Program-made: the position numbers and the translations under genes
The notes under the pieces: generated by a model
Seen by the model: the letters and a program-made list of their open reading frames with translations, nothing else
What the model was told of the DNA's origin: nothing
Database searches by the model: none
In this document: positions 21,351 through 47,565 of the stretch, piece after piece
Numbering within the stretch: the stretch's first letter is position 1
Layout: every line of letters begins with the position of its first letter
Assembly (NCBI GenBank): GCA_028716245.1
Contig: JAQUQW010000005.1
Coordinates: forward strand, 288-64,287
Length of the DNA stretch: 64,000 nucleotides
Reading direction: 5' to 3'
From: Candidatus Omnitrophota bacterium
GTDB lineage: Bacteria; Omnitrophota; Gorgyraeia; Gygaellales; Profunditerraquicolaceae

Positions 21351-21419
21351 TAAATAGGGACAGCGACCATTTTTTAAGAACCCTTGGATTCGTAAAAAAT
21401 GGTCGCTGTCCCTATTTAT
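21351..21419. repeat. perfect palindrome (25 bp arms TAAATAGGGACAGCGACCATTTTTT, 19 nt loop); bidirectional terminator-like element / MITE-like pair of the IRs that bound the 49476-51752 insertion
   Basis: Arms at 21351-21375 and 21395-21419 are exact reverse complements. It sits between tRNA-Leu (+) and the 3' end of the minus-strand response regulator. Confidence 0.7.
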
Positions 21420-22354
21420 TAAGGCTTTTCCTGCCGCTTATCTTTGACGTAGTTGCTTTTTTCCATACTTTTGGCAAGTTTCTTTAACTCCGCACCAATC
21501 TCACCAATCTGGGCCACATGCGAGATCTCACGCATTTCATTAGTCACTACGCCGATAGATATTGACAGCAGAGGGATTTTATGGATTTTACTTTGGCGGT
21601 CATAGCCGATGATAAAGCCGTTCTCCCTGTCCTCTTGGTTGTAAAATGACGCAGAGACATTGTCAAAGTCATGAATTATCTTTTCACAGATTTTATTTGC
21701 AAAATCCGGAGTAGTTATAACCACAAAATCATCGCCGCCGATGTGCCCAACAAAATCCTCGGGCCTGCCGTATTCTTTGATAGCGCCCAGCAGAATGCGG
21801 GCGGTTTCCCGGATTACATTATCGCCGTGTTCAAATCCGTATTTGTCATTGTAGGCTTTGAATTTATCTAAATCAGCATAGCATACCGCGAACTGCTTTT
21901 TACTCTCGATGCGCTTGGAAAGTTCATTAAGGATGGCCACGTTTCCGGGCAGCCGGGTAAGCGGGTTTGCTTCAAGGTCTCTTTGCGTGCGCCGTAAGAC
22001 CATGCGTATTCTTGCCAGAAGTTCTTTTGGTTCAAAAGGCTTAACCACATAGTCGTCGGCTCCGGAGTCAATGCCGCCGATTTTATCGCTGACCTCGCCT
22101 TTGCCGGTAACCATAATTACCGGCAGGTGCTGCAATAGCAAATCTTTTTTAACTAAGTCGCATACTTGGCGTCCGTCCATTTTAGGCATTTTGTAATCCA
22201 GAAGCACCAAGTCCAGAGGTTTGGAGCGGATAATCTCCAAGGCTTCTTGGCCATCTACTGCTTCAATAATTTCGTAATTTTCTTCGCAGAGGGTAAGTTT
22301 AAGGATATCTCTTATATCCGGGTCATCATCAGCAATAAGTATTTTTATGCTCAT
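21419..22354 (-). CDS. response regulator, REC + GGDEF domain (motif variant GGDDF, I-site RxxD present)
   Basis: REC with DDD...D...K; GGDEF domain with HIGGDDF preceded by RPED at the canonical I-site position. Confidence 0.8.
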   Translation of the reverse strand: MSIKILIADDDPDIRDILKLTLCEENYEIIEAVDGQEALEIIRSKPLDLVLLDYKMPKMDGRQVCDLVKKDLLLQHLPVIMVTGKGEVSDKIGGIDSGADDYVVKPFEPKELLARIRMVLRRTQRDLEANPLTRLPGNVAILNELSKRIESKKQFAVCYADLDKFKAYNDKYGFEHGDNVIRETARILLGAIKEYGRPEDFVGHIGGDDFVVITTPDFANKICEKIIHDFDNVSASFYNQEDRENGFIIGYDRQSKIHKIPLLSISIGVVTNEMREISHVAQIGEIGAELKKLAKSMEKSNYVKDKRQEKP

Positions 22355-22358
22355 AGTT

Positions 22359-23837
22359 TTATTCGCCAGCCTTAAGAGTAAAGCTGAAAGTTGAACCTTC
22401 GCCGAGTTTGCTTTTTACCCAAATTTTGCCCTGGTGGGCCTCGACAATGTGTTTAACCAGAGTCAGCCCAAGGCCGGTGCCTTTTACCTGCTGATTAATA
22501 GTGTTGTCTACGCGATAAAATTCTTCAAATATATGTTCCTGAGCTTCTTGCGGAATCCCAAAGCCAGTGTCTACAACATCAATCTGGGTTATTTTATTGG
22601 CGCAGTTTGCGTTGATATTAATTTTGCCGTTTTCCGGAGTAAACTTTAGTGCGTTACCGACCAGATTAATAAACACTCTTTCGATCTGGCCGCGGTCAGC
22701 CAGTATCTTTTGGCAATTAGCAGCTAGATTACTGCCAAAACTGATATTTTTTGTTTTTAGTTGTTCGCAAAGTAAGTCGGCAACCTTCTCGATGATAGTT
22801 TTTAAATCCAAACTTTCAATTTTCATATCCACCTTGCCGGATTCAATGCGCGAGATATCCAATAAATCGTTTACCATATGTACCAATTCATCGCTGTGGC
22901 GGTTTATTTTCTCAAGTCTGTTTCTTATTTCATCCGGTATTGTTCCCAGTTTACCGGTAAGTAAAATAGCCGCGTAACCCTTGATCGATGTAAGGGGGGT
23001 CCTTAATTCGTGCGACACGCTGGAGATAAAATCGCTTTTACGTTTGCTTATCTTTTTTCCTTCTTCTAAGGCTTGAGTCAACTGGCGGGTTCTTTCCTCA
23101 ACCTTCATCTCTAATTCCTGCTGCGACCTCCATGTTTTTTCAAAAAGGCGGGCGTTATCTAAAGTCTGGCTGATTTGATTGGCCAATATGCTGATAAATT
23201 CCTGGTCCCCTTTGGTGATGGAAGTTTCTCTATTTTGCGTGCCTACAAAGATGAAGCCCCGGTCTCCCTCCTGAGTGAGCACCGGGCAGATAACAAATGA
23301 ATGCACTAGAAACATCTGGCGGATTTTATCCTTTGATAAGAAGCTCTCGGGCGTAAATTCAGAGGAGGCGCTTACGCCGTTTTGAATTAGGTCCAGAAAA
23401 TAATCTTTGCCGGCATTAATTGCAGTTTCTATCTTTACCGATTCTTCGTCGCTGTATCCCAAGCGTAAGTACGGGCGGAACTCTCTTTCTAAGCTCTTCC
23501 ATAAAAAAGCCAGCGATCTCTCAAATCCCAGCTCTTCCAGGTATTTATTATCTATTTTCTTAAAAATCTGTTTTTCTTCCAGGGTCGTATTTATTTCCCG
23601 GGAAAGTTTTTGCAGCGTATCTAACCCTGAGATTTTTTTATCCAATTCTTCCTGAGCCTTGTTCAACTCCATATCCGTGCGCATGATCAGTTTGGCTTGT
23701 TCATCCATCTCTTCAAGAGAAAGGTTTAAGGCGCTTATCCTGTCCTTTGCTTCCTTTAAGCGTTGTATTTTAGAAAGCAAAGATATCCCCAGAGCGGTGA
23801 CAATTAAACAAATACTAATGAAGATAAAGGAAAGCAT
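22359..23837 (-). CDS. sensor histidine kinase (TM, coiled coil, GAF, HisKA, HATPase_c)
   Basis: H-box SHELRTPL; N, G1 (DTGFGI), and G2 (GTGLGL) boxes. Confidence 0.85.
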   Translation of the reverse strand: MLSFIFISICLIVTALGISLLSKIQRLKEAKDRISALNLSLEEMDEQAKLIMRTDMELNKAQEELDKKISGLDTLQKLSREINTTLEEKQIFKKIDNKYLEELGFERSLAFLWKSLEREFRPYLRLGYSDEESVKIETAINAGKDYFLDLIQNGVSASSEFTPESFLSKDKIRQMFLVHSFVICPVLTQEGDRGFIFVGTQNRETSITKGDQEFISILANQISQTLDNARLFEKTWRSQQELEMKVEERTRQLTQALEEGKKISKRKSDFISSVSHELRTPLTSIKGYAAILLTGKLGTIPDEIRNRLEKINRHSDELVHMVNDLLDISRIESGKVDMKIESLDLKTIIEKVADLLCEQLKTKNISFGSNLAANCQKILADRGQIERVFINLVGNALKFTPENGKININANCANKITQIDVVDTGFGIPQEAQEHIFEEFYRVDNTINQQVKGTGLGLTLVKHIVEAHQGKIWVKSKLGEGSTFSFTLKAGE

Positions 23838-23838
23838 T

Positions 23839-25026
23839 TTATTGATCTCCTATGGCTAAAATATTTATACTCTGGTTGCGGAAATAGGTCTTGCCCAAAT
23901 AATTGATGGATCTAAGCGGAGCCTGTTCTCCTTTGGTGTAGATGCCTATTAACGGGGTGTCTTTACCGAATACTTCTTTAATCACATCGAGCTCTATATC
24001 ATTCTGCCTGCCTAAAAGGGAAAATCTGGCGGCAGAATCAAATACCATCACGAACTTTATTTTTTGCCCTCCCAGGTTTCTCTTTGCTTCTGCGCAGGCG
24101 GCAACCGCAGCTTGCAGGCGGGAATCTACGGTGCTAATCATTAATCTTATTTTACTGTCTTGGGGAACGTCTCCCTGGGTAACTAGCGATCCGTCGTCTT
24201 TTATTGAGATTATATTGCGCAGGAGGTATTCCTTTTCTCCTTGCAGATAAATCCCTATAGGATAGGAAATAGATATGCGTTGTAATTCTTTGGCAAGTTC
24301 TGCCGTATCTTTAGCAAAGTAATCTTCATAAAGCTTTACTGCCGGAGCCCCGTCGATCTCCTGAATAACATTACTGTTTGATTGGGTAACGCAGCGCATT
24401 TTACCCAAAGCAAACCAGCCATGTTTTATGCCGAACCCAAAATTGAATTTTCCGCCAAAAAGTATCCCGCAGCAGGATCCAGAAAGCAGTTCGCCGTTAA
24501 CGTATTGAAATGTTTTTTGATTGGCAAAATTATCCGCAGCCGAGGCCCCGATTAGAGGAAAGCTTCTTCCCAAATTTTCCTGCAAGCCATTGATTAAATT
24601 TGTTCCTTCAGTTATTAGTTTATCCGAGAAGATTATACTTAAGCTCCTGCGCACATTTTTGAAACCATACAATAATTTATTGGCCAACTCTTTGCCCAAT
24701 GTAAACGAAGTGTCCTTGTTAATATTTTTGACCGAGGCGATATTAAAAAAAGTCTGTTGGTTTAAGCTAATGAGTAAAACAGCAAATCCATATTTAAATA
24801 TACCTTTATTGGTCAGGAGCCCCTCGCTGCTGCAGCCAAATATCGGGATTTCTCCCAGCAGGTTATTAACGGTTCTTAATACCAAAGGATGTGCAAATTC
24901 TGGGGAGGTAAAAATAAAGGCCAGGCTTGCCGGCACCTTTCCCAATCCGATTACCGCCTGTCCCATCGCCTCATTAGCAGCTTGGATATGTTCTTTGAGC
25001 TGGCTAAAACCAAAACTTATCTTCAT
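23839..25026 (-). CDS. FIST-domain sensory protein
   Basis: 395 aa; FIST_N/FIST_C-like pattern (..FIFTSPEF.., ..PIFGCSSEG.., ..SGSCCGILFGG..). Adjacent to the HK gene, 2 bp intergenic. Confidence 0.55.
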   Translation of the reverse strand: MKISFGFSQLKEHIQAANEAMGQAVIGLGKVPASLAFIFTSPEFAHPLVLRTVNNLLGEIPIFGCSSEGLLTNKGIFKYGFAVLLISLNQQTFFNIASVKNINKDTSFTLGKELANKLLYGFKNVRRSLSIIFSDKLITEGTNLINGLQENLGRSFPLIGASAADNFANQKTFQYVNGELLSGSCCGILFGGKFNFGFGIKHGWFALGKMRCVTQSNSNVIQEIDGAPAVKLYEDYFAKDTAELAKELQRISISYPIGIYLQGEKEYLLRNIISIKDDGSLVTQGDVPQDSKIRLMISTVDSRLQAAVAACAEAKRNLGGQKIKFVMVFDSAARFSLLGRQNDIELDVIKEVFGKDTPLIGIYTKGEQAPLRSINYLGKTYFRNQSINILAIGDQ

Positions 25027-27917: not shown

Positions 27918-28823
27918 ATGAGGCGCAAAAACCCGTCGGTTACTCTTGTCTGTGTATTATCGGTTTTATTTTTATGCTTATCCGGCTGCGACCAGGTTAA
28001 AAAGTTAAAAATTCCTCCCAAAGCTAAATCCTGGCAGCCACAGGGAACGGTGGTTGCCTACGTTAATGACCTGCCTATTACTTCAGAGCAGTTAGACCAG
28101 GAAATCAGCACTTATAATGAATCTACAAGTAATCCCGAAGCTAAAATCAATACTCGCGAACAGAAAGTTGCCTACTTAAACGAAGAGTTAATCCGGCGCT
28201 ACCTTTTGTATTTAGAGGCAAAGGCCAGGGGTCTGGATAGGCAGCCGAAAACCCAGGAACTCTTGGGAAACCTGGAAGTTAATATTTTAGCCAGCCAGAT
28301 TCTCCATGACGAAATAGATAATATAACGGTTACCTCCTCGGAAATTGAGGAATTTTACAATACCTTTAAAGACCAGTACCGTCAGGAAGAAGAAAGAAAA
28401 ATCAGGGAGATTGTTTTGGATAGCGAGACAGAAGCAAAAGATATTCTTATAGAGTTGCTTAAAGGCGCGGATTTCGCTACCTTGGCGATGCAGCGTTCAA
28501 AAGCGCAAAGCGCCTCAGCCGGAGGGGATTTAGGGTTCATCAAAAAGGGCAAGCGCGGCGCGGATTACAGCCGTTTTGATGAAATAGCTTTTTCGCGTTC
28601 ATTGGAAGCAGGCCAGCTAAGCACCGTTTTTAAGGAAAAGAACGGTTACTACATAATAAAGATAGAAGCGATAAAAGGCGGCCAGGTAAGGGCTTTATCC
28701 GAAGTATGGGATGAGATTAAAAGGAGCGTTCTGTTCCTTAAGCAGCAGCAAAAATTAAAGGAAATTACCACGGGCTTATTAAAGAAAACTAAAGTAGTCA
28801 TATACCAGGACCTGATAAAATAA
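27918..28823 (+). CDS. PpiC/parvulin-type peptidyl-prolyl isomerase lipoprotein (PrsA/SurA-like)
   Basis: Lipobox LSGC and a parvulin domain (GGDLGFIKKGKRGADYSRFDEIAF...). Confidence 0.7.
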   Translation: MRRKNPSVTLVCVLSVLFLCLSGCDQVKKLKIPPKAKSWQPQGTVVAYVNDLPITSEQLDQEISTYNESTSNPEAKINTREQKVAYLNEELIRRYLLYLEAKARGLDRQPKTQELLGNLEVNILASQILHDEIDNITVTSSEIEEFYNTFKDQYRQEEERKIREIVLDSETEAKDILIELLKGADFATLAMQRSKAQSASAGGDLGFIKKGKRGADYSRFDEIAFSRSLEAGQLSTVFKEKNGYYIIKIEAIKGGQVRALSEVWDEIKRSVLFLKQQQKLKEITTGLLKKTKVVIYQDLIK

Positions 28824-29728
28824 TGAAAATAGAATTAAGAAGAAAATTCCCCCTGATTATCGCGGTTGTCTGCGGGATCGCGGCGATAATCTTGCTCAAC
28901 CTTTATCTTAAGAGCAGAGAAGGTGAAATCTGGGATAAGATGAGGCAAGCGGAACAAAAGGCCCAGGCTGCCAAACCAAAAGTGACCATGGGGGTTGTAC
29001 TGGTGGCAAAAAGAGAGATTCCGGTGCAGACGCCGATTACCGCCGAAGACCTTACATTTAGACAGGTGCCAATGGAATATATCCAGCCCGGCGCAGTTAC
29101 TTCTCTTGAACAGGTTATCGGCCAGATTGCTTCCGGTCCGATCGGCGCCGAAGAGCAGATACTGAGCACAAAACTTCTTCCTCCCGGAAATATCGGAAAG
29201 ACCCTTTCGGAAATTACGCCTGAAGGCAAGAGAGCAGTAACTGTTTCCGTGGATAACCTTGTCAGTATTGCCGGTTTACTAAAACCCGGAGATTACGTGG
29301 ATATATTCGCGCTCATTGCTTTGCCTAAGAAGACCATATCGCAGACAAAAGAAGAATCAGATCCGCGCTTAATCTCGCTTTTTCAAGGGGTGCAAGTATT
29401 GGCAATGGGAAATGAGCTGGTTGCTTCAAAATCTAAAACAAAAGAAAATGCGGCTACCGCGGCGCAAACCGTTACTTTCGCGCTTACGCCTCAAGAAGCG
29501 GTGTTACTTTCTTTTGTCCAGGAACACGGCAAGATTAAATTAGCCCTGCGTTCCTCGCAGGATACCAAGGTTGAGGCGGTTGCACCGGCTGATTGGGATA
29601 CCCTATTAAATTATTTATCCACCAGCCAGGGGGAGAAAGCCGGTTTGGAAGGCCAGCCGGTAGTTGAGATCTACCGCGGCTTGCAAAAAGAAATTGTTCC
29701 CCTATCAGCATCGAACAAACAAAAATGA
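28823..29728 (+). CDS. cpaB: Flp pilus assembly protein CpaB/RcpC (SAF + CpaB domains)
   Basis: N-terminal TM, SAF-like domain (REIPVQTPITAEDL...), CpaB C-domain; 1 nt overlap with the upstream gene. Confidence 0.75.
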   Translation: MKIELRRKFPLIIAVVCGIAAIILLNLYLKSREGEIWDKMRQAEQKAQAAKPKVTMGVVLVAKREIPVQTPITAEDLTFRQVPMEYIQPGAVTSLEQVIGQIASGPIGAEEQILSTKLLPPGNIGKTLSEITPEGKRAVTVSVDNLVSIAGLLKPGDYVDIFALIALPKKTISQTKEESDPRLISLFQGVQVLAMGNELVASKSKTKENAATAAQTVTFALTPQEAVLLSFVQEHGKIKLALRSSQDTKVEAVAPADWDTLLNYLSTSQGEKAGLEGQPVVEIYRGLQKEIVPLSASNKQK

Positions 29729-31377
29729 GGAATATTCTTAAACTCACATTTCTACTGTTTTTTATTTTGTCCGCGGCGCAGGCCTATCCGGAAGAGTTGA
29801 AAGTTATAACTTTATACGTCGCAGAAGGCAAGGTTGTGTCCGTAAATACTCCTACCCGGGTGGTGATCAATAATCCTAATGTTATTGACGTTACTTCAGT
29901 AAGCAAGGAGGATATGTTGCTGGCGGCCAAAAGTCCAGGCACAACCAATTTAGTCTGGTGGGATGCCGCCGGGCAGCATTCATTGCGGGTAGAGGTTTTT
30001 CAGGAAGATATGAATTTGGTTAAAAAAAGGATAGATACCTTATTAAAAGAATTGAACCTTCCCGGGGTTTTTACGCGAGGCTCGGATAGCGAAGGCAAGG
30101 TTTTACTTTTAGGAAGCGTAAAGCAGCCTGCGGATTTAGAGCGTATCGATACGGCATTAAGTTCGCTTAAAGGGAAAACCGCCAATCTTATCCAGCTAAA
30201 GGAAGAAAGGGCGGTAGTAGAGATTAAAGTGCAAGTCCTGGAATTAAATAAAGATGCCACCTCGAGTTTAGGTTTTAGTTTTCCAGGTTCCATCGATATT
30301 ACCGACATCGGCTCGCCAGGACTAGCTGCCGCAGGCACAAGCTGGGGAAAGTTATTTAAGGTATCGAATGTAGGCCGTGGTGCTTTTAATTTGACATTGG
30401 ATGCTTTGGTTCAGGAAGGCAAGGCGCGCATACTTTCTCAGCCCAGGCTTGCTTGCCAAAGCGGCAAGGAAGCTGAGTTGTTAGTCGGCGGAGAAAAGCC
30501 GATATTTAATACCAGTATAGCGGCTACAAGCGGAGCCAGCGGCACAAATATAGAATATAAAGAATTCGGCATTAAATTAAAAATAAAACCCACAATAACC
30601 GAAGATAAACAGATTAAATTGGCATTGAATGTGGAAGTCAGCGACGTGGGCACAGCGGAAACCATCGGTTCAACGGGCGGGAGCACGACTACGACTACGG
30701 CCTTGGCGTATCCTTTAAGCAAACGCAACGCATCCACCCAGCTTTTTGTTAATGACGGCCAGATGATGGCTATCGGCGGGTTGATCAAGCAAAAGACCGA
30801 GGAGGATGTCCGCAAAACTCCTTTCCTGGGGGATGTACCAGTGTTGGGATTATTTTTTAGGAAAAAGTCAACCAAGGTAGGAGGTGGTCAAGGAGAGAGA
30901 GGCGATACAGAGCTGTTGATTACGCTTACCCCTACTATTATAAAAGAACAACCCGTGCTTGCTGAAACAGCTAAGGCCCAGGCGTCCCCTTCAGCCGTCA
31001 ACGTACCTATAACCAGAGAAGGCGCTAAAAGCGCAGAGTCCTTGCCCGCTAAAACTAAAGTACTTTCTCCTGCCGAAATAACCAGCCAGGCGTTGTCCGA
31101 ATACATGCACAAAATTAGCAAACGCATACAGGACAATTTCGTTTATCCTTGGGCAGCCAAACAAGGCAAAATGCAGGGAACGGTAAGATTAGGTTTGCGG
31201 CTTGATTCTATGGGCACGCTCTTAGAGGTTGAGGTTAAACAGTCATCAGGATACAACATATTTGATGAGAACGCAGTGAGTATGGTTAAAAAATTATCTC
31301 CTTATCCTCCGTTTCCTGCACAGCTCAAGCAAAAGGAACTCCGGGTAGATCTCCCTATCGTCTATAAACTGGATTAA
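29725..31377 (+). CDS. cpaC: Tad secretin CpaC/RcpA with C-terminal TonB_C-like domain
   Basis: Signal peptide, BON-like N-domains, and a secretin domain (...FLGDVPVLGLFFR...TELLITLTP...). A ~140 aa C-terminal extension reads YPWAAKQGKMQGTVRLGLRLDSMGTLLEVEVKQSSGYNIFDENAVSMVKKLSPYPPFP, like a TonB C-terminal domain. Confidence 0.75.
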   Translation: MRNILKLTFLLFFILSAAQAYPEELKVITLYVAEGKVVSVNTPTRVVINNPNVIDVTSVSKEDMLLAAKSPGTTNLVWWDAAGQHSLRVEVFQEDMNLVKKRIDTLLKELNLPGVFTRGSDSEGKVLLLGSVKQPADLERIDTALSSLKGKTANLIQLKEERAVVEIKVQVLELNKDATSSLGFSFPGSIDITDIGSPGLAAAGTSWGKLFKVSNVGRGAFNLTLDALVQEGKARILSQPRLACQSGKEAELLVGGEKPIFNTSIAATSGASGTNIEYKEFGIKLKIKPTITEDKQIKLALNVEVSDVGTAETIGSTGGSTTTTTALAYPLSKRNASTQLFVNDGQMMAIGGLIKQKTEEDVRKTPFLGDVPVLGLFFRKKSTKVGGGQGERGDTELLITLTPTIIKEQPVLAETAKAQASPSAVNVPITREGAKSAESLPAKTKVLSPAEITSQALSEYMHKISKRIQDNFVYPWAAKQGKMQGTVRLGLRLDSMGTLLEVEVKQSSGYNIFDENAVSMVKKLSPYPPFPAQLKQKELRVDLPIVYKLD

Positions 31378-31378
31378 T

Positions 31379-33556
31379 ATGGCCCAGATTATTTCTATTT
31401 TTAGCACCAAAGGCGGCGTAGGAAGGACCTTTATTGTCACCAACCTTGCCATTGCCTTAGCGCAAAAAATAACCAAAGGCAAAAAGGTTTTACTTTTTGA
31501 TACTGATTTACAGTTGCCGGGCAATATGGCGATGCTCTTGAATTTAAAGCCAAAAAAGCCCTTGGTTGATCTTATCCCCGAATGGCGTAAAGGTAATTAT
31601 ACGCCCTCCCAGATTGGCGAATATATCCTTCATTATCCCGCCGCAAGTATGGACCTGCTTCCCCTGGTCTTAACTGCCGAAGAAAGGCCGTATGTAGATG
31701 AAAAATTTATCTCTTGCGTTCTGAGCGATTTGATTAAGGAATACGAATTTATCGTTTGCGATAGCGGCAGGACATTTAATAAAGCGCTTGTGGCTATCCT
31801 TGAACAGACAAATTTGATTTTGCTGGCGATTAATCCCGACATCCTTTCGGTTTATCAGGCAAAAGAAGATATCAAGACACTGCAGTCACTATATTTTCCC
31901 GCCAAGATGATGCGTGTGGTTTTAAACCGCGCGGAAAGCACCGGCGCGGTATCCTGGCAGGAGGTAAGGGCGGCTTTGCCCTGCGATATCATCAGCCGCA
32001 TCCCGTCGGAGGGCAGGGTTGTGGGCTCGGCCTTAAACCGCGGCATACCCGTTGTGTTGGATAGTCCGCGCTCGCGCGTAAGTATTGTGCTGGATAAATT
32101 AGCTGAAGATTTAATCGCTCACCCGGATTTTTTTATCTCCCATAAAAAATTGGAAGCAGCTGTTCCGGCTGTGGAAAAAAAGAAAGAATTTTTAGAAGAG
32201 GATACCTCTTCTTTGGAATCCCTTTCCTTGGGCGGCCGTAAGCCCATTGAGAGAAAACTTACCGGCGAAGAGAAAATAGACGACTTAAAACAACGGGTGC
32301 ACAAGCGCGTTATTCAGGAATTGGATCTACGGCGCCTGGATCGCGTAGCCGGGGACCTGACAAAAATCGCGGATTTACGCCAGAAGACAATGAAAGCGAT
32401 TAATATCGCGCTAACTGATGAAGCCGGGGCGCTTATTTCTTCGCGGGAGGAGCGGGAGCGCCTGATCAAGGAGATCAGTGACGAAATTTTGGGCCTGGGC
32501 CCTTTGGAAGATTTGATCAATGACCCCGAAATTACCGATATTTTAGTTAACAATAAGAGCCAAATCTACATCGAAAAGCACGGCAAGTTAGAGTTAGTTT
32601 CCAAGCGTTTCGTATCCAATGATCAGGTGCGCCAGATAATCGAGCGCATTATCGCGCCCTTAGGCAGGAGGGTGGATGAGTCGGTGCCGATGGTTGACGG
32701 CCGGCTTTCCGACGGTTCGCGGGTTAACGCGATCATTCCTCCGCTTTCCCTTACCGGGCCGACGCTGACGATCAGGAAATTCAGCCAGGAGCGGCTTAAG
32801 GTTAATGATTTAGAACGGCTGAATGCTTTAAATAATACAATGGGAGAATTTCTTAGAGCCTGCGTTGTCTGCCGCAAGAATATAATTATTTCAGGAGGCA
32901 CCGGCTCAGGAAAAACTACGGTTTTAAATGTGCTCTCCGAGTTTGTTCCCGAAGGAGAAAGGGTGATCACGATTGAAGATGCCGCGGAATTAAAGCTCGA
33001 CCACCAGCACTGGATCCGCCTGGAGTCGCGGCCGCCGAATATTGAAGGGAAAGGGGCGATTTTCGTGCAAGATTTGTTCAGGAATTCTCTGCGCATGCGG
33101 CCTGACCGGATTATCATCGGAGAATGCCGCGGCCAGGAAGCTTTGGATATGCTCCAGGCGATGAACACCGGCCACGACGGCTCGATGACTACCATCCATG
33201 CTAACTCCACCCAAGATGTCTTAGCGCGCCTGGATTCGCTGATCCTGATGAGCGGTATCGAGATTCCCCTGCGGGCAATCCGCGAGATGATTGCCTCAAG
33301 CATCGATATGATCGTCCATACCGCCCGTTTTTCCGACGGCTCAAGAAAGATTACCCAGATAACCGAAATTACCGGGATGGCCGACGAGATGCATATCGGA
33401 TTAAACGATATATTTATTTTTGAGCAGTCCGGTATTGACAGCCAGGGAAAAGTCCAGGGAGAGTTTAAAGCCACAGGAATATTGCCGACCTTTCTAGATG
33501 ACCTACGCAAAAGTGGCAGTATCTTTTCAGAAGAAGTATTCAAAAAGAAAGAGTAA
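31379..33556 (+). CDS. fused CpaE/TadZ-like (MinD/ParA-fold) + CpaF/TadA secretion ATPase
   Basis: N-terminal KGGVGRTF deviant Walker A (CpaE-like). The C-terminal T2SSE ATPase has GGTGSGKTT, a DxxE box, an RPDRIIIGECRGQEA Asp box, and an NTGHDGSMTTIHANS His box. One 725 aa ORF. Confidence 0.8.
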   Translation: MAQIISIFSTKGGVGRTFIVTNLAIALAQKITKGKKVLLFDTDLQLPGNMAMLLNLKPKKPLVDLIPEWRKGNYTPSQIGEYILHYPAASMDLLPLVLTAEERPYVDEKFISCVLSDLIKEYEFIVCDSGRTFNKALVAILEQTNLILLAINPDILSVYQAKEDIKTLQSLYFPAKMMRVVLNRAESTGAVSWQEVRAALPCDIISRIPSEGRVVGSALNRGIPVVLDSPRSRVSIVLDKLAEDLIAHPDFFISHKKLEAAVPAVEKKKEFLEEDTSSLESLSLGGRKPIERKLTGEEKIDDLKQRVHKRVIQELDLRRLDRVAGDLTKIADLRQKTMKAINIALTDEAGALISSREERERLIKEISDEILGLGPLEDLINDPEITDILVNNKSQIYIEKHGKLELVSKRFVSNDQVRQIIERIIAPLGRRVDESVPMVDGRLSDGSRVNAIIPPLSLTGPTLTIRKFSQERLKVNDLERLNALNNTMGEFLRACVVCRKNIIISGGTGSGKTTVLNVLSEFVPEGERVITIEDAAELKLDHQHWIRLESRPPNIEGKGAIFVQDLFRNSLRMRPDRIIIGECRGQEALDMLQAMNTGHDGSMTTIHANSTQDVLARLDSLILMSGIEIPLRAIREMIASSIDMIVHTARFSDGSRKITQITEITGMADEMHIGLNDIFIFEQSGIDSQGKVQGEFKATGILPTFLDDLRKSGSIFSEEVFKKKE

Positions 33557-35859
33557 TGAATTTCTTCCGCAAAAACCAACCACTAAACCAACGCAGCCAG
33601 ATTGCCGTGATTATCACCTTTGTCATCGCGGTGATTTTTTTATTTATCGCGGTATTTATAAACCTCGCCAAAGTAAGTCAGACTAAGACTACAACCAGCA
33701 CTGCCGCGGATAAGGCCGCTTTGAGTTTAGCTTCGCAGCTGGGCAGTATGAGCCATTATTATAAGGATAAAGTGTTAAAGCTAAGCGGTTCGTCTTGTGC
33801 CACTCCTCCCTGCCAGGCATGTGACACTGATTGGTTGAGTTTAGCGACAATAATAGTGGCAATAGTTGGAGTTGCAGTTGGTATTTTTATTCCTCCAGTA
33901 GCACTTGGTGCCGCCGTTATAATGGGTGCGATTGCTATCAATTCGGCATTGCTCGGTGGAATAAACACGAAATTTAAGGAAATGACTGGATACAATGCTT
34001 CTCGAGAGAGTACATTATTCCAGGCCCTTCGCGATACCCAAAGCGATGATGTTGAGTTAAAAAGTATGGGGGCAGGCCTTTTTCGTGATGCGGAAACCGG
34101 CAAGGTTTACGATTTAAGTACTATTCCTGAAATGCGCAATGAAAAGAAAGTAAGCAGATTTGCCGCTTGGTATTATTTTTTGAGGCTTCCTTTGGTAGGC
34201 GACGAGGCGATGAAAAGAAGTTTAGATATATTTTTATTGGAGGGGATAAGGAGGTTTGTTGATGTGGATGAGTGGGATTCCAACCAATGGAAGATTAATA
34301 AGTTATCTTATGTGATTGGACCAGGTAATGGAAGCAGCAATTACGATGTGACCTGCTCCGCATCCTGCCCGGATTGGGTAAAAACCCCCGCGCAAGGACT
34401 GTTAAGAATGGTAAGGATGGATACTTCGGATAATGTCTACGGTGGATTTTTAAAGGATAAACTTCTTAGCTTATTACAGCGGTTAGAATGCGCATATGGT
34501 TTAACCTTTTGTAGCTCATTAGGGATATGCAGCAGTCTGACAGTAAGTTGCGGCGACGTAAATAACCTGATTGAAGATTTGAGAGAGTTTTTGTTAAGAA
34601 GCAAAGAGGTGTTAAACCTGCCGGTTTCTAAGCGGCTCGAACAATTAACACAATGGTTTCCGCTATGGTATAATTTTAAATATCATTGCGATCATCGATG
34701 GTTTAAAGACAGCTCGGGTAACTGTATCGATCCAAATAGCGACCCCAACCTAAATGACGACTATAAATACGATATTTATTTGCGCTTGACCCGCGACCAG
34801 ATTAAAATTAAGAGTTGGATTGCCGAGCTGCAAACTTTAAACAATAATAGAATTGTTCCGGATATAGCAAAGAAACACGGGGAATGTACTTGGGGCAGAG
34901 GTGCTTCAGTTAGTAGTACCTGTTATACGCAATACGGTTGCAGCACTTCTGAATGCGGTTGTCACTGTTGCGGCAGCGATTGCAGCGATTGTTGCTGTAA
35001 TACCTGTTGTTATCCGTCTTCTAGAAAATCACCCTGTGCTTGGGAAGGAACATATTATACTTGCGATCAGAATCCGCCCGTCTGTAGGAGTGGAGATTTA
35101 TATGGCGCAGTCCCAGGCTGGTGCGGTTCTCGCGCAGACCATGCAGGGTGCCATAGTAACTGTGGATGTGATGTCCAAAATTTTGATACTACTACTGGTG
35201 GAGCAAAAGATTTCCAAGGCCAGTTATCCTGGCGTCCTCCTATGGCGGGAAATTCGGATGGCACTGATAAGCCGACTGAAGTTGATCAGGCAATCAGAAT
35301 CCTGGGTGCCTTAAATGATGATCTCGCCAGGATAAAGACGTCTATTGGTGATTTAGCGGATAGCGTAGCGGCTAATCTGTCCAACACAGACGCTAAAAGA
35401 AATGAGATTATTTATGCCTGGAAGGATAAGCCCAAGGCGGATGGCAGCCAGCAATTTTCTCACTTTGTCAAAGTAAAGATTACTGGTTACCCTGAGAAAT
35501 TACCCAATATTACTGAAAGTACGGGATGGGGGTGGGTAGGAATTATTCCTGCTCCACAGAAGTGCCGCACGTTAAACGATTACCAGGGTGATTTTACGAT
35601 AAGCACCTGGCGTTATGACCAGGATCAGCCAACGGATATAGCCGGATGGAAACTGAAGCGCAGGAAAACACCCTCTACCGCTGAATTTGTCCCTGCACAA
35701 TTAGAAAAAATAGTAGCGGATGTCCAGGATAACGCTAAGATAGATTCAACCCAAAGTTATGTTGCTTCGATTTTAGACTACTCGATTGCCAGTTGCAGCC
35801 AAGCGCATTACGGACCGGAAAAAAGCGACATTTATATAACCGGAACTCAATGTGAATAA
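33556..35859 (+). CDS. TadG/TadE-like large pilus-associated protein with cysteine-rich region
   Basis: N-terminal TM followed by AADKAALSLASQ (Tad PF13400-like). 767 aa. A Cys cluster reads CGCHCCGSDCSDCCCNTCCYP. Confidence 0.5.
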   Translation: MNFFRKNQPLNQRSQIAVIITFVIAVIFLFIAVFINLAKVSQTKTTTSTAADKAALSLASQLGSMSHYYKDKVLKLSGSSCATPPCQACDTDWLSLATIIVAIVGVAVGIFIPPVALGAAVIMGAIAINSALLGGINTKFKEMTGYNASRESTLFQALRDTQSDDVELKSMGAGLFRDAETGKVYDLSTIPEMRNEKKVSRFAAWYYFLRLPLVGDEAMKRSLDIFLLEGIRRFVDVDEWDSNQWKINKLSYVIGPGNGSSNYDVTCSASCPDWVKTPAQGLLRMVRMDTSDNVYGGFLKDKLLSLLQRLECAYGLTFCSSLGICSSLTVSCGDVNNLIEDLREFLLRSKEVLNLPVSKRLEQLTQWFPLWYNFKYHCDHRWFKDSSGNCIDPNSDPNLNDDYKYDIYLRLTRDQIKIKSWIAELQTLNNNRIVPDIAKKHGECTWGRGASVSSTCYTQYGCSTSECGCHCCGSDCSDCCCNTCCYPSSRKSPCAWEGTYYTCDQNPPVCRSGDLYGAVPGWCGSRADHAGCHSNCGCDVQNFDTTTGGAKDFQGQLSWRPPMAGNSDGTDKPTEVDQAIRILGALNDDLARIKTSIGDLADSVAANLSNTDAKRNEIIYAWKDKPKADGSQQFSHFVKVKITGYPEKLPNITESTGWGWVGIIPAPQKCRTLNDYQGDFTISTWRYDQDQPTDIAGWKLKRRKTPSTAEFVPAQLEKIVADVQDNAKIDSTQSYVASILDYSIASCSQAHYGPEKSDIYITGTQCE

Positions 35860-38430
35860 CAAAAAACTTTTTTTCTTCAGTCTTTTATATTTTTTTTTCT
35901 GTTCGGCGCCGGCCTAGCGCAAGCAAAATCCGCAATTGATATCCTGGTTTTTTCCCCCCACCCCGACGATGAAACCCTCGCCTGCGGCGGCTCCATTAGC
36001 AAGGCAATCAAAGAAAATAAAAAGGTAAAAGTTATCTTTATGACTAACGGTGACGCGTATCCGGAGTCCGCGTCGATTTGGTTAAAAAAGAAGCCGCAAG
36101 AGCTTACTGCCGAAGATTATATTGTTTTTGGCAAGGAGCGCAAAAAAGAAGCGTTGCGTGCAATAAAAATACTTGGGTTGAAGCAAAAAGACGCGATTTT
36201 TTTGAATTATCCGGATAATGGGTTGTTTTCTCTTTGGACGCAAGAAGAATTTCCGGGTAAAAAAAAATATAGTAAAAGAAACCTGCTCAACGATATTAAG
36301 AATATCCTAAGCGATTACCAGCCCAAAATAATTTATCTTCCCCATCCCGCGGATAATCATAAGGACCATCAGGCAACAACACTTTTCGTCTATCTTGCTT
36401 TAAAAGAATTAAAGGATGCAGATAAGAATAATAGCTGGATAGATTCTTTAGAGCCCTATTATTATCTTGTTCACCGGGCTCTCAACGATAATCTTTTTCA
36501 GGTACCTGCGCGCCGCCAAGACATTGTTGATTTCAAGCAGCAAAAGTTAAAAGCGTTGAACCAATACCACACTCAATTAACCAGCGATAAGGAATTTTTG
36601 GAGGGTTTTATTAAGGATAGTGAATTATTCTGGGACGTGCCAAAAGATAAGCCAGTATATCTTAATAATCTTGAGACGGAATGGCAAGGAATAGCCGAAT
36701 ATATGCGGAGCAAGGGTTATAATGTGAATTTTGCTCCCGTAGTAGATGTCGCGGATAATATTGAAAACATGAACAATCCTTTGGTGAAAAAACAACGGAT
36801 GTATTCGCAAGACCCGCGAGTTGTCAGCGAAGTGGCTTGCGCGATAATCAGCGGAATGATTAAAGGCAAGATAATCCCGGTGCTAAAACATTTTCCCGGC
36901 TTAGGCCGAGTCGATGATGATACCCATCTTATGTTGCCTAAAGCAACCGTATCCGATACGGAACTTTATAAAAGAGATCTTTTTCCTTTTAGCGAACTCA
37001 TTAAGAAATATCCCGGTATATGGATAATGATTGACCATGCGATTTATCCCGGTTTAAGTGATAAGCCTGCTTCGTTATCTTATGAAATTCAAACTAAACT
37101 TTTGCGCGAAAAGTTGGGTTTTAAAGGAATAATTGTCGCGGATGAGCTATTAGGAATGCGGGCAATCAAGGAATATGCTTTAAGAGAGGCAATTAGAGAG
37201 CCTGTTATCGGCGAGATTGTAGCCAGGGCATTTGAAGCCGGAACGGATATTGCCGTAATTTATCCGCCTTGCGGTAATACCGAAAGAGTTGTTTCTGATA
37301 TAATTAAAAACGTAAGGCAAGCGGTAAAGGAGGGCCGGCTCGATGAAAAAAGCATCAATGAATCAGTTATCCGGATACTCAAAGAAAAAGAAAAGATTTT
37401 TGGCAGGCGTCTGGTTTATTTAGTAAAAAAAATGCCGCTTGCCGAAAAAATCGGGCAGAAGCTCGTATTCGATTATCATAACGATATAGGCGTATTTAAT
37501 AAATATAATATCGGCGGGGTTTATCTGCACGACCATAATGCCATAGATAAAACACAAAAAGATACTAAAATACCGCTATTTATAATCGGCCAACATGAAG
37601 GGGGCATAATTAGCCAGTATACGGTTAATAGCCGCAGTGCTTACGTGATTGGTAAAGAGTTCGAGGTGCTGGTAAAAAAAGATAAGGCGGATGTCGGGGG
37701 GAATATGCGCCTGCTCTGTTTAGCCGCGCATCCCGACGATGAAGACGGCGAAGCGCTGGTTTATTTCCGCGAAAAATTGAATTACCAAACTTACCTGCTT
37801 TTGGCTACGCGGGGAGAAGGGGGTAGGGATAAAATAAGTTCCGCTCTTGGCGATGAATTGGGGATTTTGCGCACCAAAGAGGAGGAGAAAGCCGCTTCGA
37901 TTTTAGGGGTAAGAAAGGTTTATTATTTAGGCAAGACAGATTTCGGTTACACCCTCTCAGTCGATAAGTCTCTTGAAAAATGGGGTAAAAAAGATACCCT
38001 GGAAAAATTAGTTTATTTTATCCGCCTGATCAGGCCGCAGATAATCATTACCAAACACAATGACTCGGATCCCAAAGAGCACGGTCAGCATCAAGCTTTG
38101 GTTATGCTTGCCAAAGAGGCGTTTGATTTAGCCGGCGACCCAAAAGCTTATCCCGGGATGATCAGGGATGGGTTATTGCCCTGGCAGCCGCTTAAGTTTT
38201 ATCAACGCTCAACAAACAATGAAGCGGATGCGGCAGATAACCAACTTAAAATTAATTCCGCAGAATATATCCCGGCGGAACGGAAAACAATTCATCAGAT
38301 CGCTTTTAAGTCATTGACCCAGCACCGCAGCCAGAGTAATTGGGAGCATTTAAGGACAAATATCCCAAAGCTAATCCGCTATCAATTGGTTAAATCCGGA
38401 AGCTGTTCAGAGAAAGAAAATTATTTTTAA
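35852..38430 (+). CDS. three-domain exopolysaccharide-modifying enzyme: PIG-L/LmbE deacetylase, GH3 (NagZ-like) hydrolase, second PIG-L deacetylase; 5' end frameshifted in a T9 tract
   Basis: A GTG at 35852 encodes the signal peptide MNNKKLFFFSLLYFFF. A single-T gap in the run 35890-35898 shifts into the long frame (...LFGAGLAQA...VFSPHPDDE...). The intact ORF is listed from 36040. GH3 motif KHFPGLGRVDDDTH; second deacetylase AAHPDDEDGE. Confidence 0.7.
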
Positions 38431-43098: not shown

Positions 43099-43365
43099 GT
43101 GCAAAATAAAAAGGTGTTTCTCGACGATAATAAGAGTTTAAGAATGAATTATTTTATGCAGTTTATAATGGCTTTTAAAAAGGCCGATAGAAGCCATCTT
43201 GCGCAAAAAAATTTTTCTGATAAAAAAGCGCAATCAATATTTGAATATGTCATATTAACGGCAGTTGTAGTGACGACTGTTTTAATTTTTGGGCCGTATT
43301 TCGGTAAGATAAAAGATTCTTGTGACAAAGCTTTTAATGCCGCGGTTACGGAGATAGTAAAATGA
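43099..43365 (+). CDS. divergent Flp-type pilin-like protein (true start probably internal)
   Basis: ...KKAQSIFEYVILTAVVVTTVLIF... pilin-like segment. Confidence 0.4.
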   Translation: MQNKKVFLDDNKSLRMNYFMQFIMAFKKADRSHLAQKNFSDKKAQSIFEYVILTAVVVTTVLIFGPYFGKIKDSCDKAFNAAVTEIVK

Positions 43366-43505
43366 GAAACAAAGCGCAAAGCACAATTGAATACGCGTTA
43401 TTAATTGCCATTGTGGCAGCGGCATTTTTGGCGATGAATGCGTATATGCAGCGTTCGGTACAGGCAAATTTTAACGTAATTGAAGAGCAGATAAATGCGC
43501 AGTAA
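43362..43505 (+). CDS. Flp-family pilin (47 aa; below the ORF-track size cutoff)
   Basis: MRNKAQSTIEYALLIAIVAAAFLAMNAYMQR...; ATGA overlap with the upstream gene. Confidence 0.6.
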   Translation: MRNKAQSTIEYALLIAIVAAAFLAMNAYMQRSVQANFNVIEEQINAQ

Positions 43506-43526
43506 TTAGAAGGAGGGAGGTTAAAG

Positions 43527-43694
43527 ATGCGTAACAAAAAGGGCCAGAGTATCTTGGAGTACGTGATTGTATTAACCGTCATAGTTATAGCGGTTGCTCT
43601 AGCGGCGACCAAGTGGATTAAACCCGCGGTTGATCAGGGATTAAATGATGCTTCAAAAAGTATTAATAATGCTACAGGGCAATTGCCAAAATAA
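43527..43694 (+). CDS. Flp-family pilin (55 aa) with canonical G/XXXXEY site
   Basis: MRNKKG|QSILEYVIVLTVIVIAVALAA...; RBS AGGAGGGAGG. Confidence 0.7.
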   Translation: MRNKKGQSILEYVIVLTVIVIAVALAATKWIKPAVDQGLNDASKSINNATGQLPK

Positions 43695-43717
43695 TTATTT
43701 TAGGGGAGGTGAATAAG

Positions 43718-44071
43718 ATGTTTAACAAAAAGGGCCAGAATACAGCGGAATACGCGATACTTATCGCGTTGATAATCGCGGCAGCAGTGGGAATGCAGAC
43801 TTACGTTAAAAGGGGCTTACAGGGAAGGGTGCATGAGGCGGTTAGGAATACCGGCCAGGCACTACCAGATGTGGGAGGTGCCAGTTTGAGTTTTAGCGGC
43901 AACCAGTATGAACCGTATTATACTGAGTCTGACACAAAAGTAAAAAGCGCCAGAACTGCTCAGGAAACACTGGGTAACCGCGGCCAGATTACCCGCTCTA
44001 ACGTACAAGAAGCAACCACGGTTGATATTGGAGGAACTGAGAAAGTCAATAGCACAGCCGGAGCTGATTAA
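43718..44071 (+). CDS. Flp-type pilin with ~80 aa C-terminal extension
   Basis: MFNKKG|QNTAEYAILIALIIAAAVGMQTYVKRGLQGR...; RBS GGGGAGGTG. Confidence 0.65.
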   Translation: MFNKKGQNTAEYAILIALIIAAAVGMQTYVKRGLQGRVHEAVRNTGQALPDVGGASLSFSGNQYEPYYTESDTKVKSARTAQETLGNRGQITRSNVQEATTVDIGGTEKVNSTAGAD

Positions 44072-44084
44072 GGAGGTGAATAAG

Positions 44085-44429
44085 ATGTTTAACAAAAAGG
44101 GCCAGAGCACATTGGAATACGCATTGATAACCGCGGTGATAATTGCCGGGCTTTTACTGATGCAGCATTATATGAAGCATGGTTACGCCGGAAGATTGAA
44201 ATCAGCCAGTGATGATATCGGCGAGCAATATGACCCTAGCAAATATAATGCAACATTTAACGTAACCAACAAGAGTTATACGCAACAGACTGCTACAGGC
44301 GGAGCCACAACCCAACAGTATCTTGATTTAGGCGATGGTTCTAATGCTGGTAGGGTGCAGAAAAAAGAGAGTGTTGCCAACGAAACGATTGATGCCTGGG
44401 GCCAGAATGAGAGCTTGTATAGTAAATAA
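44085..44429 (+). CDS. Flp-type pilin with C-terminal extension
   Basis: MFNKKG|QSTLEYALITAVIIAGLLLMQHYMKHGYAGR...; RBS AGGAGGTG. Confidence 0.65.
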   Translation: MFNKKGQSTLEYALITAVIIAGLLLMQHYMKHGYAGRLKSASDDIGEQYDPSKYNATFNVTNKSYTQQTATGGATTQQYLDLGDGSNAGRVQKKESVANETIDAWGQNESLYSK

Positions 44430-44763
44430 AACAATCGGGATACGCAGGGCGCAAAGCGTAGCTGAATATAGCGTTTGTTTGGCACTAGTTTTAGCCGCGC
44501 TTTTGGGGATGCAGATTTATGTAAAAAGAGGCTTGCAGGGAAGATACAAAGAATTGGTTGACCAGGCGGCTAAACAGGCCGCAAGCGCGGCTCAATTGGC
44601 TACAAGCCCGAAACAATATGAGCCGTACTATGTTCAGGACAGATTTAGAGTCAGCCAGTCTAAAATAACCAATGAAACTAGCAGTTCCCCCGGCAAAATG
44701 AATCGGGATTTTGTTGAGGATAGCACGGCAGTTAAAGGCACAGCCACAAGGGATGTGCAATAA
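44407..44763 (+). CDS. Flp-type pilin-like protein with C-terminal extension (start uncertain)
   Basis: ...IRRAQSVAEYSVCLALVLAALLGMQIYVKRGLQGRYKE... Confidence 0.5.
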   Translation: MRACIVNKTIGIRRAQSVAEYSVCLALVLAALLGMQIYVKRGLQGRYKELVDQAAKQAASAAQLATSPKQYEPYYVQDRFRVSQSKITNETSSSPGKMNRDFVEDSTAVKGTATRDVQ

Positions 44764-44764
44764 A

Positions 44765-45940
44765 ATGCGTAAAAGAGCCCAGAGCATAAATGAATATGTG
44801 TTGGTGATTGCCCTAGTTACCTTAGCTGGTATAGGTATGCAGATTTATATTAAACGGGGCATACAGGGTATAGTGAAGACCTCTGCCGACAGATTAGCCG
44901 GTGAAAAAGGAGATTCAGTTGTGTATACGGGCAGTGCCAAAAGCATTTTACCCCGTGCGCAGTGGAATCCCGTTGCCATCGCGTACGCGGATAATAAGCT
45001 CAACGGCGGATTTTTTGTGGCTGAGGTAACCGGCAACCAAGTTTATTATAATCTTTATTCCGATAGCAGCAACCTTAATAATAAAACAGTTATTGGCGGG
45101 CAGGACTTAGCCAGCGGTGATTTTACCAGTTATGACTGGGAGGGTTATGTTGACGCGGTTTATGATAAAAACGGCAATTTAATTCAGAGTTTTACTCCCA
45201 AGCAGGCAAGGGCTGACTATGCTCCATATGAAATACTCTCATTAAATACTGCGGCGAATAAATCCATGGTCCAAAGTGGAGTGATGGAATTAGGCCTGGT
45301 TGCCTTTGACCAGAAAGATCATCCGTTGAAATTTACGGCGGACAAAAAAGTTATCGTACATACTGTTTCAAAGCATAGCATCAGCCCGCAAAATTTAGCC
45401 GCGGCGAATTGGCATCCGGCGATGACAGCGTATCAGGTGAAAATGGTACAAAATAATATTCCAGGATTTATCCAGGCAGAAGTGCAAGGCAATATGGTCT
45501 ACTATTATACATTCACCACCGATATCAAAAACAAGATACTTTTCGGCGGAGAGAATCTGCACACGGGGGATTTTACCCAATTCGGACCGGATGGTTTTCC
45601 CATCTCAACCGTAGATAGTAATCTCACTGTGCTCAGGACCTACAGCGGTTATGTAACCGATCCGGTAACCAAGGAGATTACGGGTATAATCGGCAGCGAC
45701 GGCAACATTTATGGGCAAAACCAGATAGTAACAATAAGCCCGGTGCTTCCAACCACTGGCCCGGCAACGGTTGCTTCTCCGATGACAACAAAGACCATCG
45801 ACCATGACACGACTCATGTTACCGGAGCATGGACCGCGGTTTATAAATTGGAAAACGCAAACACATTCGGCGCTAGGGACAAAACCGGTTTAAATAATAA
45901 TAATTTAAATGCTGGTAACAACGTGACGGGGCACCAATGA
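44765..45940 (+). CDS. giant Flp-type pilin (391 aa) with duplicated ~130 aa C-terminal repeat module
   Basis: MRKRAQSINEYVLVIALVTLAGIGMQIYIKRGIQG..., then two homologous blocks (...FFVAEVTGNQVYYNLYSD...GGQDLASGDFTSYDWEGY... / ...FIQAEVQGNMVYYYTFTTD...GGENLHTGDFTQFGPDGF...). Confidence 0.6.
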   Translation: MRKRAQSINEYVLVIALVTLAGIGMQIYIKRGIQGIVKTSADRLAGEKGDSVVYTGSAKSILPRAQWNPVAIAYADNKLNGGFFVAEVTGNQVYYNLYSDSSNLNNKTVIGGQDLASGDFTSYDWEGYVDAVYDKNGNLIQSFTPKQARADYAPYEILSLNTAANKSMVQSGVMELGLVAFDQKDHPLKFTADKKVIVHTVSKHSISPQNLAAANWHPAMTAYQVKMVQNNIPGFIQAEVQGNMVYYYTFTTDIKNKILFGGENLHTGDFTQFGPDGFPISTVDSNLTVLRTYSGYVTDPVTKEITGIIGSDGNIYGQNQIVTISPVLPTTGPATVASPMTTKTIDHDTTHVTGAWTAVYKLENANTFGARDKTGLNNNNLNAGNNVTGHQ

Positions 45941-47326: not shown

Positions 47327-47565
47327 AAGCCCAAGTTGCGCTTGAGTTTGTCACCGCTTTTATTTGCACCATTCTTTTCTTGGTGGCAACCGCGCAAATA
47401 TTTGTCTGGTTCGGAAACACCATCGTTAACCGGAATAAAGCGTATGAAGAGACTCGCGCTGCACAGTGGCAATGGTTTAATCAGCCCGGTGATCCAATTA
47501 ACCCGGTGATAGTGGATTTCTATAATCAAAGCGATTATCCTCTAGATATATTCCATAAGAAATAA
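47308..47565 (+). CDS. TadE-like small pseudopilin
   Basis: MDNTKVKAQVALEFVTAFICTILFLVATAQIF... Confidence 0.5.
   Translation: MDNTKVKAQVALEFVTAFICTILFLVATAQIFVWFGNTIVNRNKAYEETRAAQWQWFNQPGDPINPVIVDFYNQSDYPLDIFHKK

Follow-up and report, generated by a model that had tools for sequence, protein, structure and literature searches.

We analysed a 64-kb stretch of DNA from a Candidatus Omnitrophota bacterium (64,000 nt of contig JAQUQW010000005.1, referred to here as the window) and found that one of its genes, tadZA (31379-33556, + strand, stop codon within these coordinates), encodes a TadZ-like ATPase of the ParA/MinD type joined to a TadA/CpaF motor ATPase. Most likely this is a natural fusion inherited under selection, in which a flexible linker of ~45 residues connects a TadZ/CpaE-type ParA/MinD ATPase module without the atypical receiver domain (ARD) to a complete hexameric motor ATPase of the TadA/CpaF type, which it joins at the N-terminal helical bundle. 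The Omnitrophota, most of which are ultra-small, have not been cultured and are believed to live as predators or parasites; the Tad machine is considered one of their main devices for attachment to the host (PMC10066038). The initial annotation had proposed a fusion of a CpaE/TadZ-like ParA-fold protein with CpaF/TadA in a single frame of 725 residues, which was confirmed by inspection of the open reading frame (ORF), by Pfam and by NCBIfam. Translation of the window gave 725 residues from an ATG start with zero internal stops. Pfam assigned CbiA/AAA_31/ParA to residues 2-191 and T2SSE to residues 372-646 (E 8e-62), the latter bearing out the claim that a complete T2SSE ATPase is read in the same frame, and NCBIfam placed MinD-type models on residues 1-252 and the TadA-family model TIGR03819 on residues 333-662.

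Homologues of the protein were collected with a word-indexed search of 5.8 billion proteins from NCBI, JGI, ENA and Logan, grouped into clusters at 90% identity. We found >100 clusters that were 58-96% identical to the query, 715-734 residues long, aligned over its whole length and composed of the identical domain pair, the exceptions being a handful of fragments and an unrelated multi-domain protein with 1,183 residues. All named members were metagenome-assembled genomes (MAGs) of Candidatus Omnitrophota, so this genome is not alone in having the fusion. The frame was unbroken in 115/115 aligned full-length homologues, and codon-level comparison of five genomic tadZA loci (L001, L003, L004, L005, L007) revealed zero stops; the splitting stop or frameshift of which the initial annotation had warned was thus found in neither set. 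In those comparisons of the five loci in which synonymous sites were unsaturated, the N-terminal domain (N-domain) had a ratio of nonsynonymous to synonymous substitution rates (dN/dS) of 0.04-0.11, the linker one of 0.12-0.19 and the TadA part one of 0.05-0.08, values indicating that purifying selection acts on all three regions, the junction included. The segment containing the linker (query residues 245-335) varied from 86 to 96 residues among the 115 homologues, in whole codons only. No conserved internal Met was present at positions 250-380 of the family alignment, and hence there is no conserved internal start that would yield a separate TadA. Intact orthologues 93-94% identical to the window protein were present in L001 and L007. 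The idea that a sequencing or assembly error at ~32100-32300 merged adjacent cpaE and cpaF genes through a lost stop or a compensating frameshift could appeal to the separate neighbouring tadZ and tadA of canonical loci and to the linker being the least conserved part, but it is practically ruled out by a frame that is intact in >100 independently assembled clusters, the five stop-free loci and the low dN/dS, so that tadZA, as judged from the sequences, is a real, conserved single gene.

The C-terminal half of the protein was assigned to TadA/CpaF. The linker (32129-32263, residues 251-295; this and all other tadZA segments are on the + strand) opens with a conserved [HN]P[ED]xF[IV]xHQEL motif, in which F252 and L258 are at least 87% conserved, and continues as a charged, poorly conserved stretch of variable length with predicted local distance difference test (pLDDT) scores of 34-54. 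Its mean conservation in the 115-sequence alignment was 0.51, compared with 0.66 in the N-domain and 0.81-0.83 in TadA. The predicted template modelling score (pTM) of the full-length model was 0.43, which gives no fixed interdomain arrangement. The linker is followed by a helical bundle (32264-32491, residues 296-371) with predicted helices at 296-314, 317-323, 327-348 and 356-371 and invariant residues L303, K304, H308 and I312. Since query residue ~354 aligns to CpaF residue ~129, this bundle corresponds to NTD1 in the CpaF domain scheme (PMC11300603), and by the same alignment the ParA module and linker appear to stand where CpaF NTD0 would be. In Caulobacter CpaF, NTD0 is disordered and is not needed for pilus extension (PMC11300603). 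NTD2 and the catalytic CTD occupy 32492-33553 (residues 372-725), with the Walker A motif GGTGSGKT at residues 506-513 (nt 32894-32917). This motif, E533-D534, E582 and R584 (E582-C-R584), H599 and H607 were 100% conserved in the 115 sequences. A PDB search with the TadA half retrieved C. crescentus CpaF (8RKD, 8RJF, 9E24; E 1e-115), followed by the more distant GspE-like/FlaI (1e-38) and VirB11 (1e-33), and by sequence similarity the nearest characterised relative is CpaF/TadA, not PilB, GspE or VirB11. The TIGR03819 score (345.5 bits) was under the curated cut-off of 373.15; this model is aimed at a specific actinobacterial-type, conjugal-transfer-associated subfamily and is therefore the wrong family for tadZA.

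The N-domain (31379-32128, residues 1-250) adopts a ParA/MinD fold in its AlphaFold2 model (pLDDT 88.5, pTM 0.89). Foldseek returned the Chlorobium ParA-family ATPase 3EA0 as the top match (template modelling score, TM, 0.83-0.89), with further matches to MinD (TM 0.74-0.80), FleN/FlhG, Soj and BcsQ. An ARD was absent: the ParA fold begins at residue 2, and the stop-to-stop frame opens only 10 codons 5' of the ATG, which leaves no space for an extra N-terminal domain. The deviant Walker A motif KGGVGRT was present as originally described, at residues 11-17 (nt 31409-31429), and it matches the N-domain consensus K/RGGxGx[ST] of the Bdellovibrio TadZA preprint (bioRxiv 10.64898/2026.07.08.737194). 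Invariant or near-invariant in the 115 sequences were K11, G12, G13, G15, T17, N22, D41, D43, D128, G130, P153-D154, N183 and P209. When Bdellovibrionales proteins were added, eleven columns (K11, G12, G13, G15, N22, D41, D43, G130, P153, N183, P209) stayed invariant, and T17, D128 and D154 dropped out of that set. Position 16 of the Walker A motif is R in 75/115 family members, K in 39/115 and I in 1/115.

It is conceivable that the N-domain acts as a nucleotide-independent scaffold or regulatory appendage (autoinhibitory or membrane-tethering, for example) and not as an active ParA-type switch, the fusion merely anchoring it. Two thirds of the family have arginine in place of the P-loop lysine, which would fit this idea, as would the dispensability for extension of CpaF NTD0, which occupies the same position. 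TadZ-type proteins reportedly have very low ATPase activity. However, K11, the residues of the G-rich loop, T17, the switch I pair D41/D43, the Walker B residue D128 and N183 show full or almost full conservation in both Omnitrophota and Bdellovibrionales, and dN/dS is equally low in the N-domain and the motor. Such conservation of the nucleotide site, together with the low dN/dS, would be hard to explain without nucleotide binding, and we consider a scaffold of this kind very unlikely.

The position of tadZA was determined next to genes of a Tad pilus. It is the fourth gene of a tightly packed cluster on the + strand in which overlaps and gaps are 1-4 nt. The cluster is opened by a PpiC-type peptidyl-prolyl isomerase gene (27918-28823; Pfam), with synteny in L002-L007, and continues with cpaB/rcpC (28823-29728; TIGR03177 175.9 bits against a cut-off of 71; Pfam RcpC and SAF), an rcpA/cpaC secretin gene with a C-terminal TonB_C domain (29725-31377; Pfam Secretin, T2SS-T3SS_pil_N and TonB_C), tadZA, and a gene for a Cys-rich TadG-like protein of 767 residues with a TadE/G-like N-terminal pilin-type helix (33556-35859; weak Pfam Tad match, E 8.5e-4). 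A single nucleotide separates the rcpA stop from the tadZA ATG (TAA-t-ATG), and the start of the tadG-like gene overlaps the tadZA stop by 1 nt (TAATG). The gene order around tadZA was kept in seven Omnitrophota loci with TadZA identities of 68-94%, and the tadG-like gene was conserved 3' of tadZA in L001-L003, L006 and L007. An array of ~11 Flp-type prepilin/pseudopilin genes (43099-47739, +), a tadB-like gene (47736-48581, +; T2SSF, E 4.8e-18) and a tadC-like gene (48515-49468, +; T2SSF, E 6.9e-15), both encoding platform proteins, were located 10-14 kb downstream of tadZA. The Flp-type ORFs encode 47-409 residues and, as read from their translations, carry a leader followed by G/A-Q-S-x-x-E-Y and a hydrophobic helix; the larger ones gave no Pfam matches. 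Within the window we found no other ParA-like or TadA-like ORF, saw no prepilin peptidase (TadV/Peptidase_A24) and identified no RomR-like gene. By its gene content the window encodes a nearly complete Tad/Flp machine, with the fusion as the only ATPase gene there.

For comparison we used five canonical loci, from Vicinamibacterales (L008), Motiliproteus (L009), Hydrogenedentales (L010), Alphaproteobacteria (L013) and Solibacteraceae (L014). All five have the order cpaB-rcpA-tadZ-tadA-tadB-tadC with tadZ and tadA as separate neighbours, in agreement with the earlier statement that CpaE and CpaF are normally encoded by separate adjacent genes, and tadZA is placed where these two genes sit, after rcpA. 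Apparent full-length tadZA matches in L008 and L009 turned out to be two adjacent ORFs. The canonical TadZ proteins in these loci are 378-443 residues long, with an extension of 120-180 residues before the ParA domain that is weakly receiver-like in two of the five, as an ARD would be.

To survey the fusion more widely, 1.84 billion representatives at 50% identity were scanned exhaustively with HMMER using the window protein as query, and the best 150 were assessed. A ParA-like N-domain was fused to TadA in 72 of these 150, in proteins of ~620-940 residues (mostly 640-790). Their Walker A variants included KGGVG with KT, QT, KS, TS or AS endings, KGGSGVT and RGGNGQS. The named carriers beyond Omnitrophota included Bdellovibrionales and Bacteriovoracia (Bdellovibrionota) and one Spirochaetota MAG. 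By BLASTP, the Bdellovibrionales fusion P0138 was collinear with residues 17-725 of the window protein at 40% identity (E 1e-172), and it has >120 fused relatives in Bdellovibrionales, Bdellovibrionaceae and Bdellovibrio sp. The comparison proteins on the Bdellovibrio side were those of Bdellovibrionales and Bdellovibrio sp. MAGs, not B. bacteriovorus HD100 TadZA itself. The P0138 locus reads Flp-peptidase A24-...-RcpC-secretin-TadZA-TadB, with T2SSF directly downstream, and by its gene order matches the published tadZA-tadB unit. These results indicated that in this Omnitrophota clade, as in Bdellovibrionales, the fusion is the usual arrangement. In a neighbour-joining (NJ) tree of the TadA domain, the fusions formed two large blocks, one of Omnitrophota with many unnamed clusters and the other of Bdellovibrionota with the Spirochaetota MAG; this tree would fit either one old fusion, if it is poorly resolved, or at least two independent fusions of the adjacent genes. 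In the same survey, P0185, P0221, P0260, P0170, P0254 and P0231 were TadA/CpaF proteins with an N-terminal FHA domain and no ParA module. This sizeable clade, with FHA in place of the ParA module, shows that the TadA N-terminus is a hotspot for regulatory fusions.

We further considered whether the N-domain is TadZ or MinD. Its top profile matches were MinD models, with 88.8 bits for TIGR01969 (cut-off 201.75) and 74.5 bits for TIGR01968 (cut-off 212.9), and a MinD/FlhG-type ATPase might have been recruited independently to TadA, in which case the likeness to TadZ would be functional convergence. However, the canonical standalone TadZ proteins scored 66-77 bits against the same models, likewise far below the cut-offs, and a true MinD control 369-487 bits; profile libraries thus do not discriminate here. 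The best PDB match, 3EA0, was common to the N-domain profile (6e-26) and the canonical standalone TadZ (2e-22). In an NJ tree of 75 ParA-type domains, a MinD-like trio, a small outgroup sample, was split with 73% bootstrap from the fused N-domains and five standalone TadZs, raw pairwise identities being low throughout (21-27%); the Omnitrophota N-domains formed a clade (98%) and were grouped with MinD in 0/60 replicates. Moreover, the module sits at the tadZ position, between rcpA and the tadA part, and other fusion representatives carry the typical TadZ motifs KGGVGTS, KGGVGAS, KGGSGVT and RGGNGQS. A separate MinD-type recruitment is therefore unlikely in our view, the assignment to TadZ being based mainly on gene position and on the moderately supported tree.

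Several observations nevertheless weigh against our reading of tadZA. The N-domain is 27% identical to true MinD and 21-24% identical to standalone TadZ ATPase domains. The canonical MinD-type KGGVGKT, a variant that cannot be told from MinD, occurs in one third of the family (39/115). The TadZ of E. rectale (3FKQ) was retrieved with the N-domain neither by sequence nor by Foldseek, although canonical TadZ likewise failed to retrieve it. These points, along with the missing ARD, are the ones that would favour MinD recruitment. In addition, tadZA has neither tadB nor tadC as a neighbour, which sets it apart from the Bdellovibrionales locus, and FHA-TadA proteins separate the Omnitrophota and Bdellovibrionota fusion blocks in the TadA-domain tree, so that a single origin is not established. 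Finally, ATP binding, dimerisation, hexamer geometry and any partner of the Omnitrophota TadZA are features that we infer by analogy with characterised relatives. Taken together, the N-domain is TadZ by position and probably by function, reduced to the ATPase module, and from sequence comparison it likely descends from TadZ, with moderate support. Of the CpaE/TadZ-like half first proposed, the ATPase module and the tadZ position therefore stood; an ARD was not there, and TadZ descent held only with this moderate support.

We propose the following working of TadZA. The TadA part would hexamerise beneath the TadB/TadC platform and power polymerisation of Flp pilins, and it would probably drive retraction too, as does CpaF, a bifunctional motor of both pilus extension and retraction (PMC11300603). 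The ParA-like part would bind ATP and form ATP-dependent sandwich dimers through the signature lysine K11. Hydrolysis by the N-domain, with R or K at position 16, would be slow; the change of K16 to R in most members suggests this, as in TadZ. Up to three N-domain dimers could form per hexamer in place of CpaF's dispensable NTD0, with the flexible linker letting the six N-domains pair or reach a partner. Tethered in this way, the N-domains would serve as a built-in positioning and assembly hub, a role played by free TadZ/CpaE elsewhere, and the fusion would set a 1:1 stoichiometry and ensure the joint arrival of motor and hub. A TadZ/CpaE-type hub may be the unassigned 'outer cytoplasmic ring' observed by electron cryotomography in Caulobacter (PMC12637624). 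Lacking an ARD, TadZA would need to receive its spatial cue from another protein, presumably a separate partner binding the TadZ module and linker, comparable to RomR in B. bacteriovorus, where TadZ plus linker are necessary and sufficient to bind this polar hub (bioRxiv 10.64898/2026.07.08.737194).

A broader interpretation would see the ARD-less TadZ::TadA as an ancient, distinct Tad subtype that host-dependent or predatory lineages (Omnitrophota, Bdellovibrionota and others) have in common, either through shared ancestry or because the entire system was transferred, and in which ATP-dependent dimerisation of the six tethered ParA modules would directly gate motor assembly or the extension/retraction state, beyond positioning. 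We regard this as rather unlikely; if it were true, the presence of the fusion in a genome would mark a predatory or epibiotic lifestyle that depends on contact. Under the reading of tadZA as a conserved TadZ-TadA fusion, the finding is useful for annotation and reveals no new mechanism. It corrects the database names 'septum site-determining protein MinD' and the generic 'T2SS/T4P/T4SS ATPase', and it offers an easy way of recognising this Tad subtype by sequence in metagenomes.

Other features of the neighbouring genes were recorded. The array of ~11 Flp-type paralogues directly 5' of tadB and tadC is unusually large. In the secretin (29725-31377, +), TonB_C covers residues 471-549 (E 5e-17), making the protein a secretin::TonB_C fusion that aligns almost over its full length, TonB_C included, in the Omnitrophota loci L001-L007; non-Omnitrophota secretin matches end at ~residue 384, and TonB_C was not among the Pfam families listed for the Bdellovibrionales secretin gene. 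The centre of the 767-residue TadG-like protein is very Cys-rich, for example CGCHCCGSDCSDCCCNTCC, and the protein diverges fast, with 38-57% identity where TadZA has 81-94%; a role at the pilus tip or as an adhesin is possible. Directly 3' of the tad cluster, and syntenic in Omnitrophota loci, a gene at 36040-38430 (+) encodes a 796-residue fusion of an N-terminal GH3 glycosidase domain (NagZ-like) with two PIG-L-type deacetylase domains, a domain content that suggests a cell-wall-processing enzyme. Upstream, an operon at 21419-25026 (-) encodes a FIST sensor, a histidine kinase and a GGDEF-domain response regulator; it also precedes the tad cluster in L004, L005 and L007 and is a candidate cyclic di-GMP regulatory module for the pilus.

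Beyond tadC, two ORFs on opposite strands (49595-50107, +, and 50154-50498, -) contain a near-identical 33-residue motif, and they are adjoined by an ORF of 332 residues (50517-51515, -) with no Pfam match that lies between the tad genes and a giant ORF. The group at 49595-51515 may be a remnant of a mobile element. The giant ORF (52208-64000, +) comprises >3,931 codons, continues past the window end and had no Pfam match in either half; it adjoins the Tad/pilin cluster and agrees with the 'giant ORFs' reported for Omnitrophota beside secretion and pilus genes. Among the comparison loci, L005 (CAZQEY010000015.1) is labelled 'uncultured Planctomycetales', yet its TadZA is 74% identical and its synteny is of the Omnitrophota type, which makes an error of binning or classification probable. 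L011 ('Neptunomonas') is a 2.4-kb contig, too short for judgement.

Compared with known systems, the two activities and the gene order of tadZA are those of canonical TadZ/CpaE plus TadA/CpaF (Aggregatibacter, Caulobacter, Pseudomonas), and the protein differs from these in having no ARD and in the covalent joining of the ATPase module to the motor. It resembles MinD and FlhG (FleN) in fold and in the deviant Walker A motif with its signature lysine. Unlike them, it continues into the linker and TadA, leaving no free C-terminal membrane-targeting helix, and its context is a Tad pilus locus instead of min or flagellar genes. The FHA-TadA fusions, with which the ParA-TadA fusions are interleaved in the TadA-domain tree, likewise place an N-terminal regulatory module before the TadA/CpaF motor, but theirs is a phosphopeptide-binding FHA domain where that of tadZA is a ParA/MinD ATPase.

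The closest parallel is the 'atypical TadZA fusion ATPase' of tad locus 1 in B. bacteriovorus, described in a July 2026 preprint, which has a TadZ region without ARD, a K/RGGXGXS/T Walker A-like motif and a flexible linker to TadA, and in which depletion of tadZA-tadB abolishes prey invasion (bioRxiv 10.64898/2026.07.08.737194). Full-text searches, judged mostly by title and abstract, gave no description of a natural TadZ/CpaE-TadA fusion beyond this preprint. The Omnitrophota study of Seymour et al. 2023, in which Omnitrophota TadB and TadC grouped with Bdellovibrionales (PMC10066038), does not mention the fusion, nor does a 2026 Omnitrophota genome preprint. Like the Bdellovibrio protein, the window protein consists of an ARD-less TadZ module, a linker and TadA in a single polypeptide, and its locus keeps the Bdellovibrionales order RcpC/CpaB-secretin-TadZA. 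It differs in coming from another phylum, with an N-domain identity of only ~21-24%, in the location of tadB and tadC ~14 kb downstream behind the pilin array, with the 767-residue tadG-like gene directly after tadZA, and in the TonB_C domain of the Omnitrophota secretin. The Tad motor of Omnitrophota is thus the same kind of TadZ-TadA fusion as the prey-invasion-essential, polarity-controlled one of Bdellovibrio, and since the architecture is widespread and no Bdellovibrio oddity, results from the tractable Bdellovibrio become transferable to Omnitrophota. The window protein is a new phylum-level member of an already described architecture.

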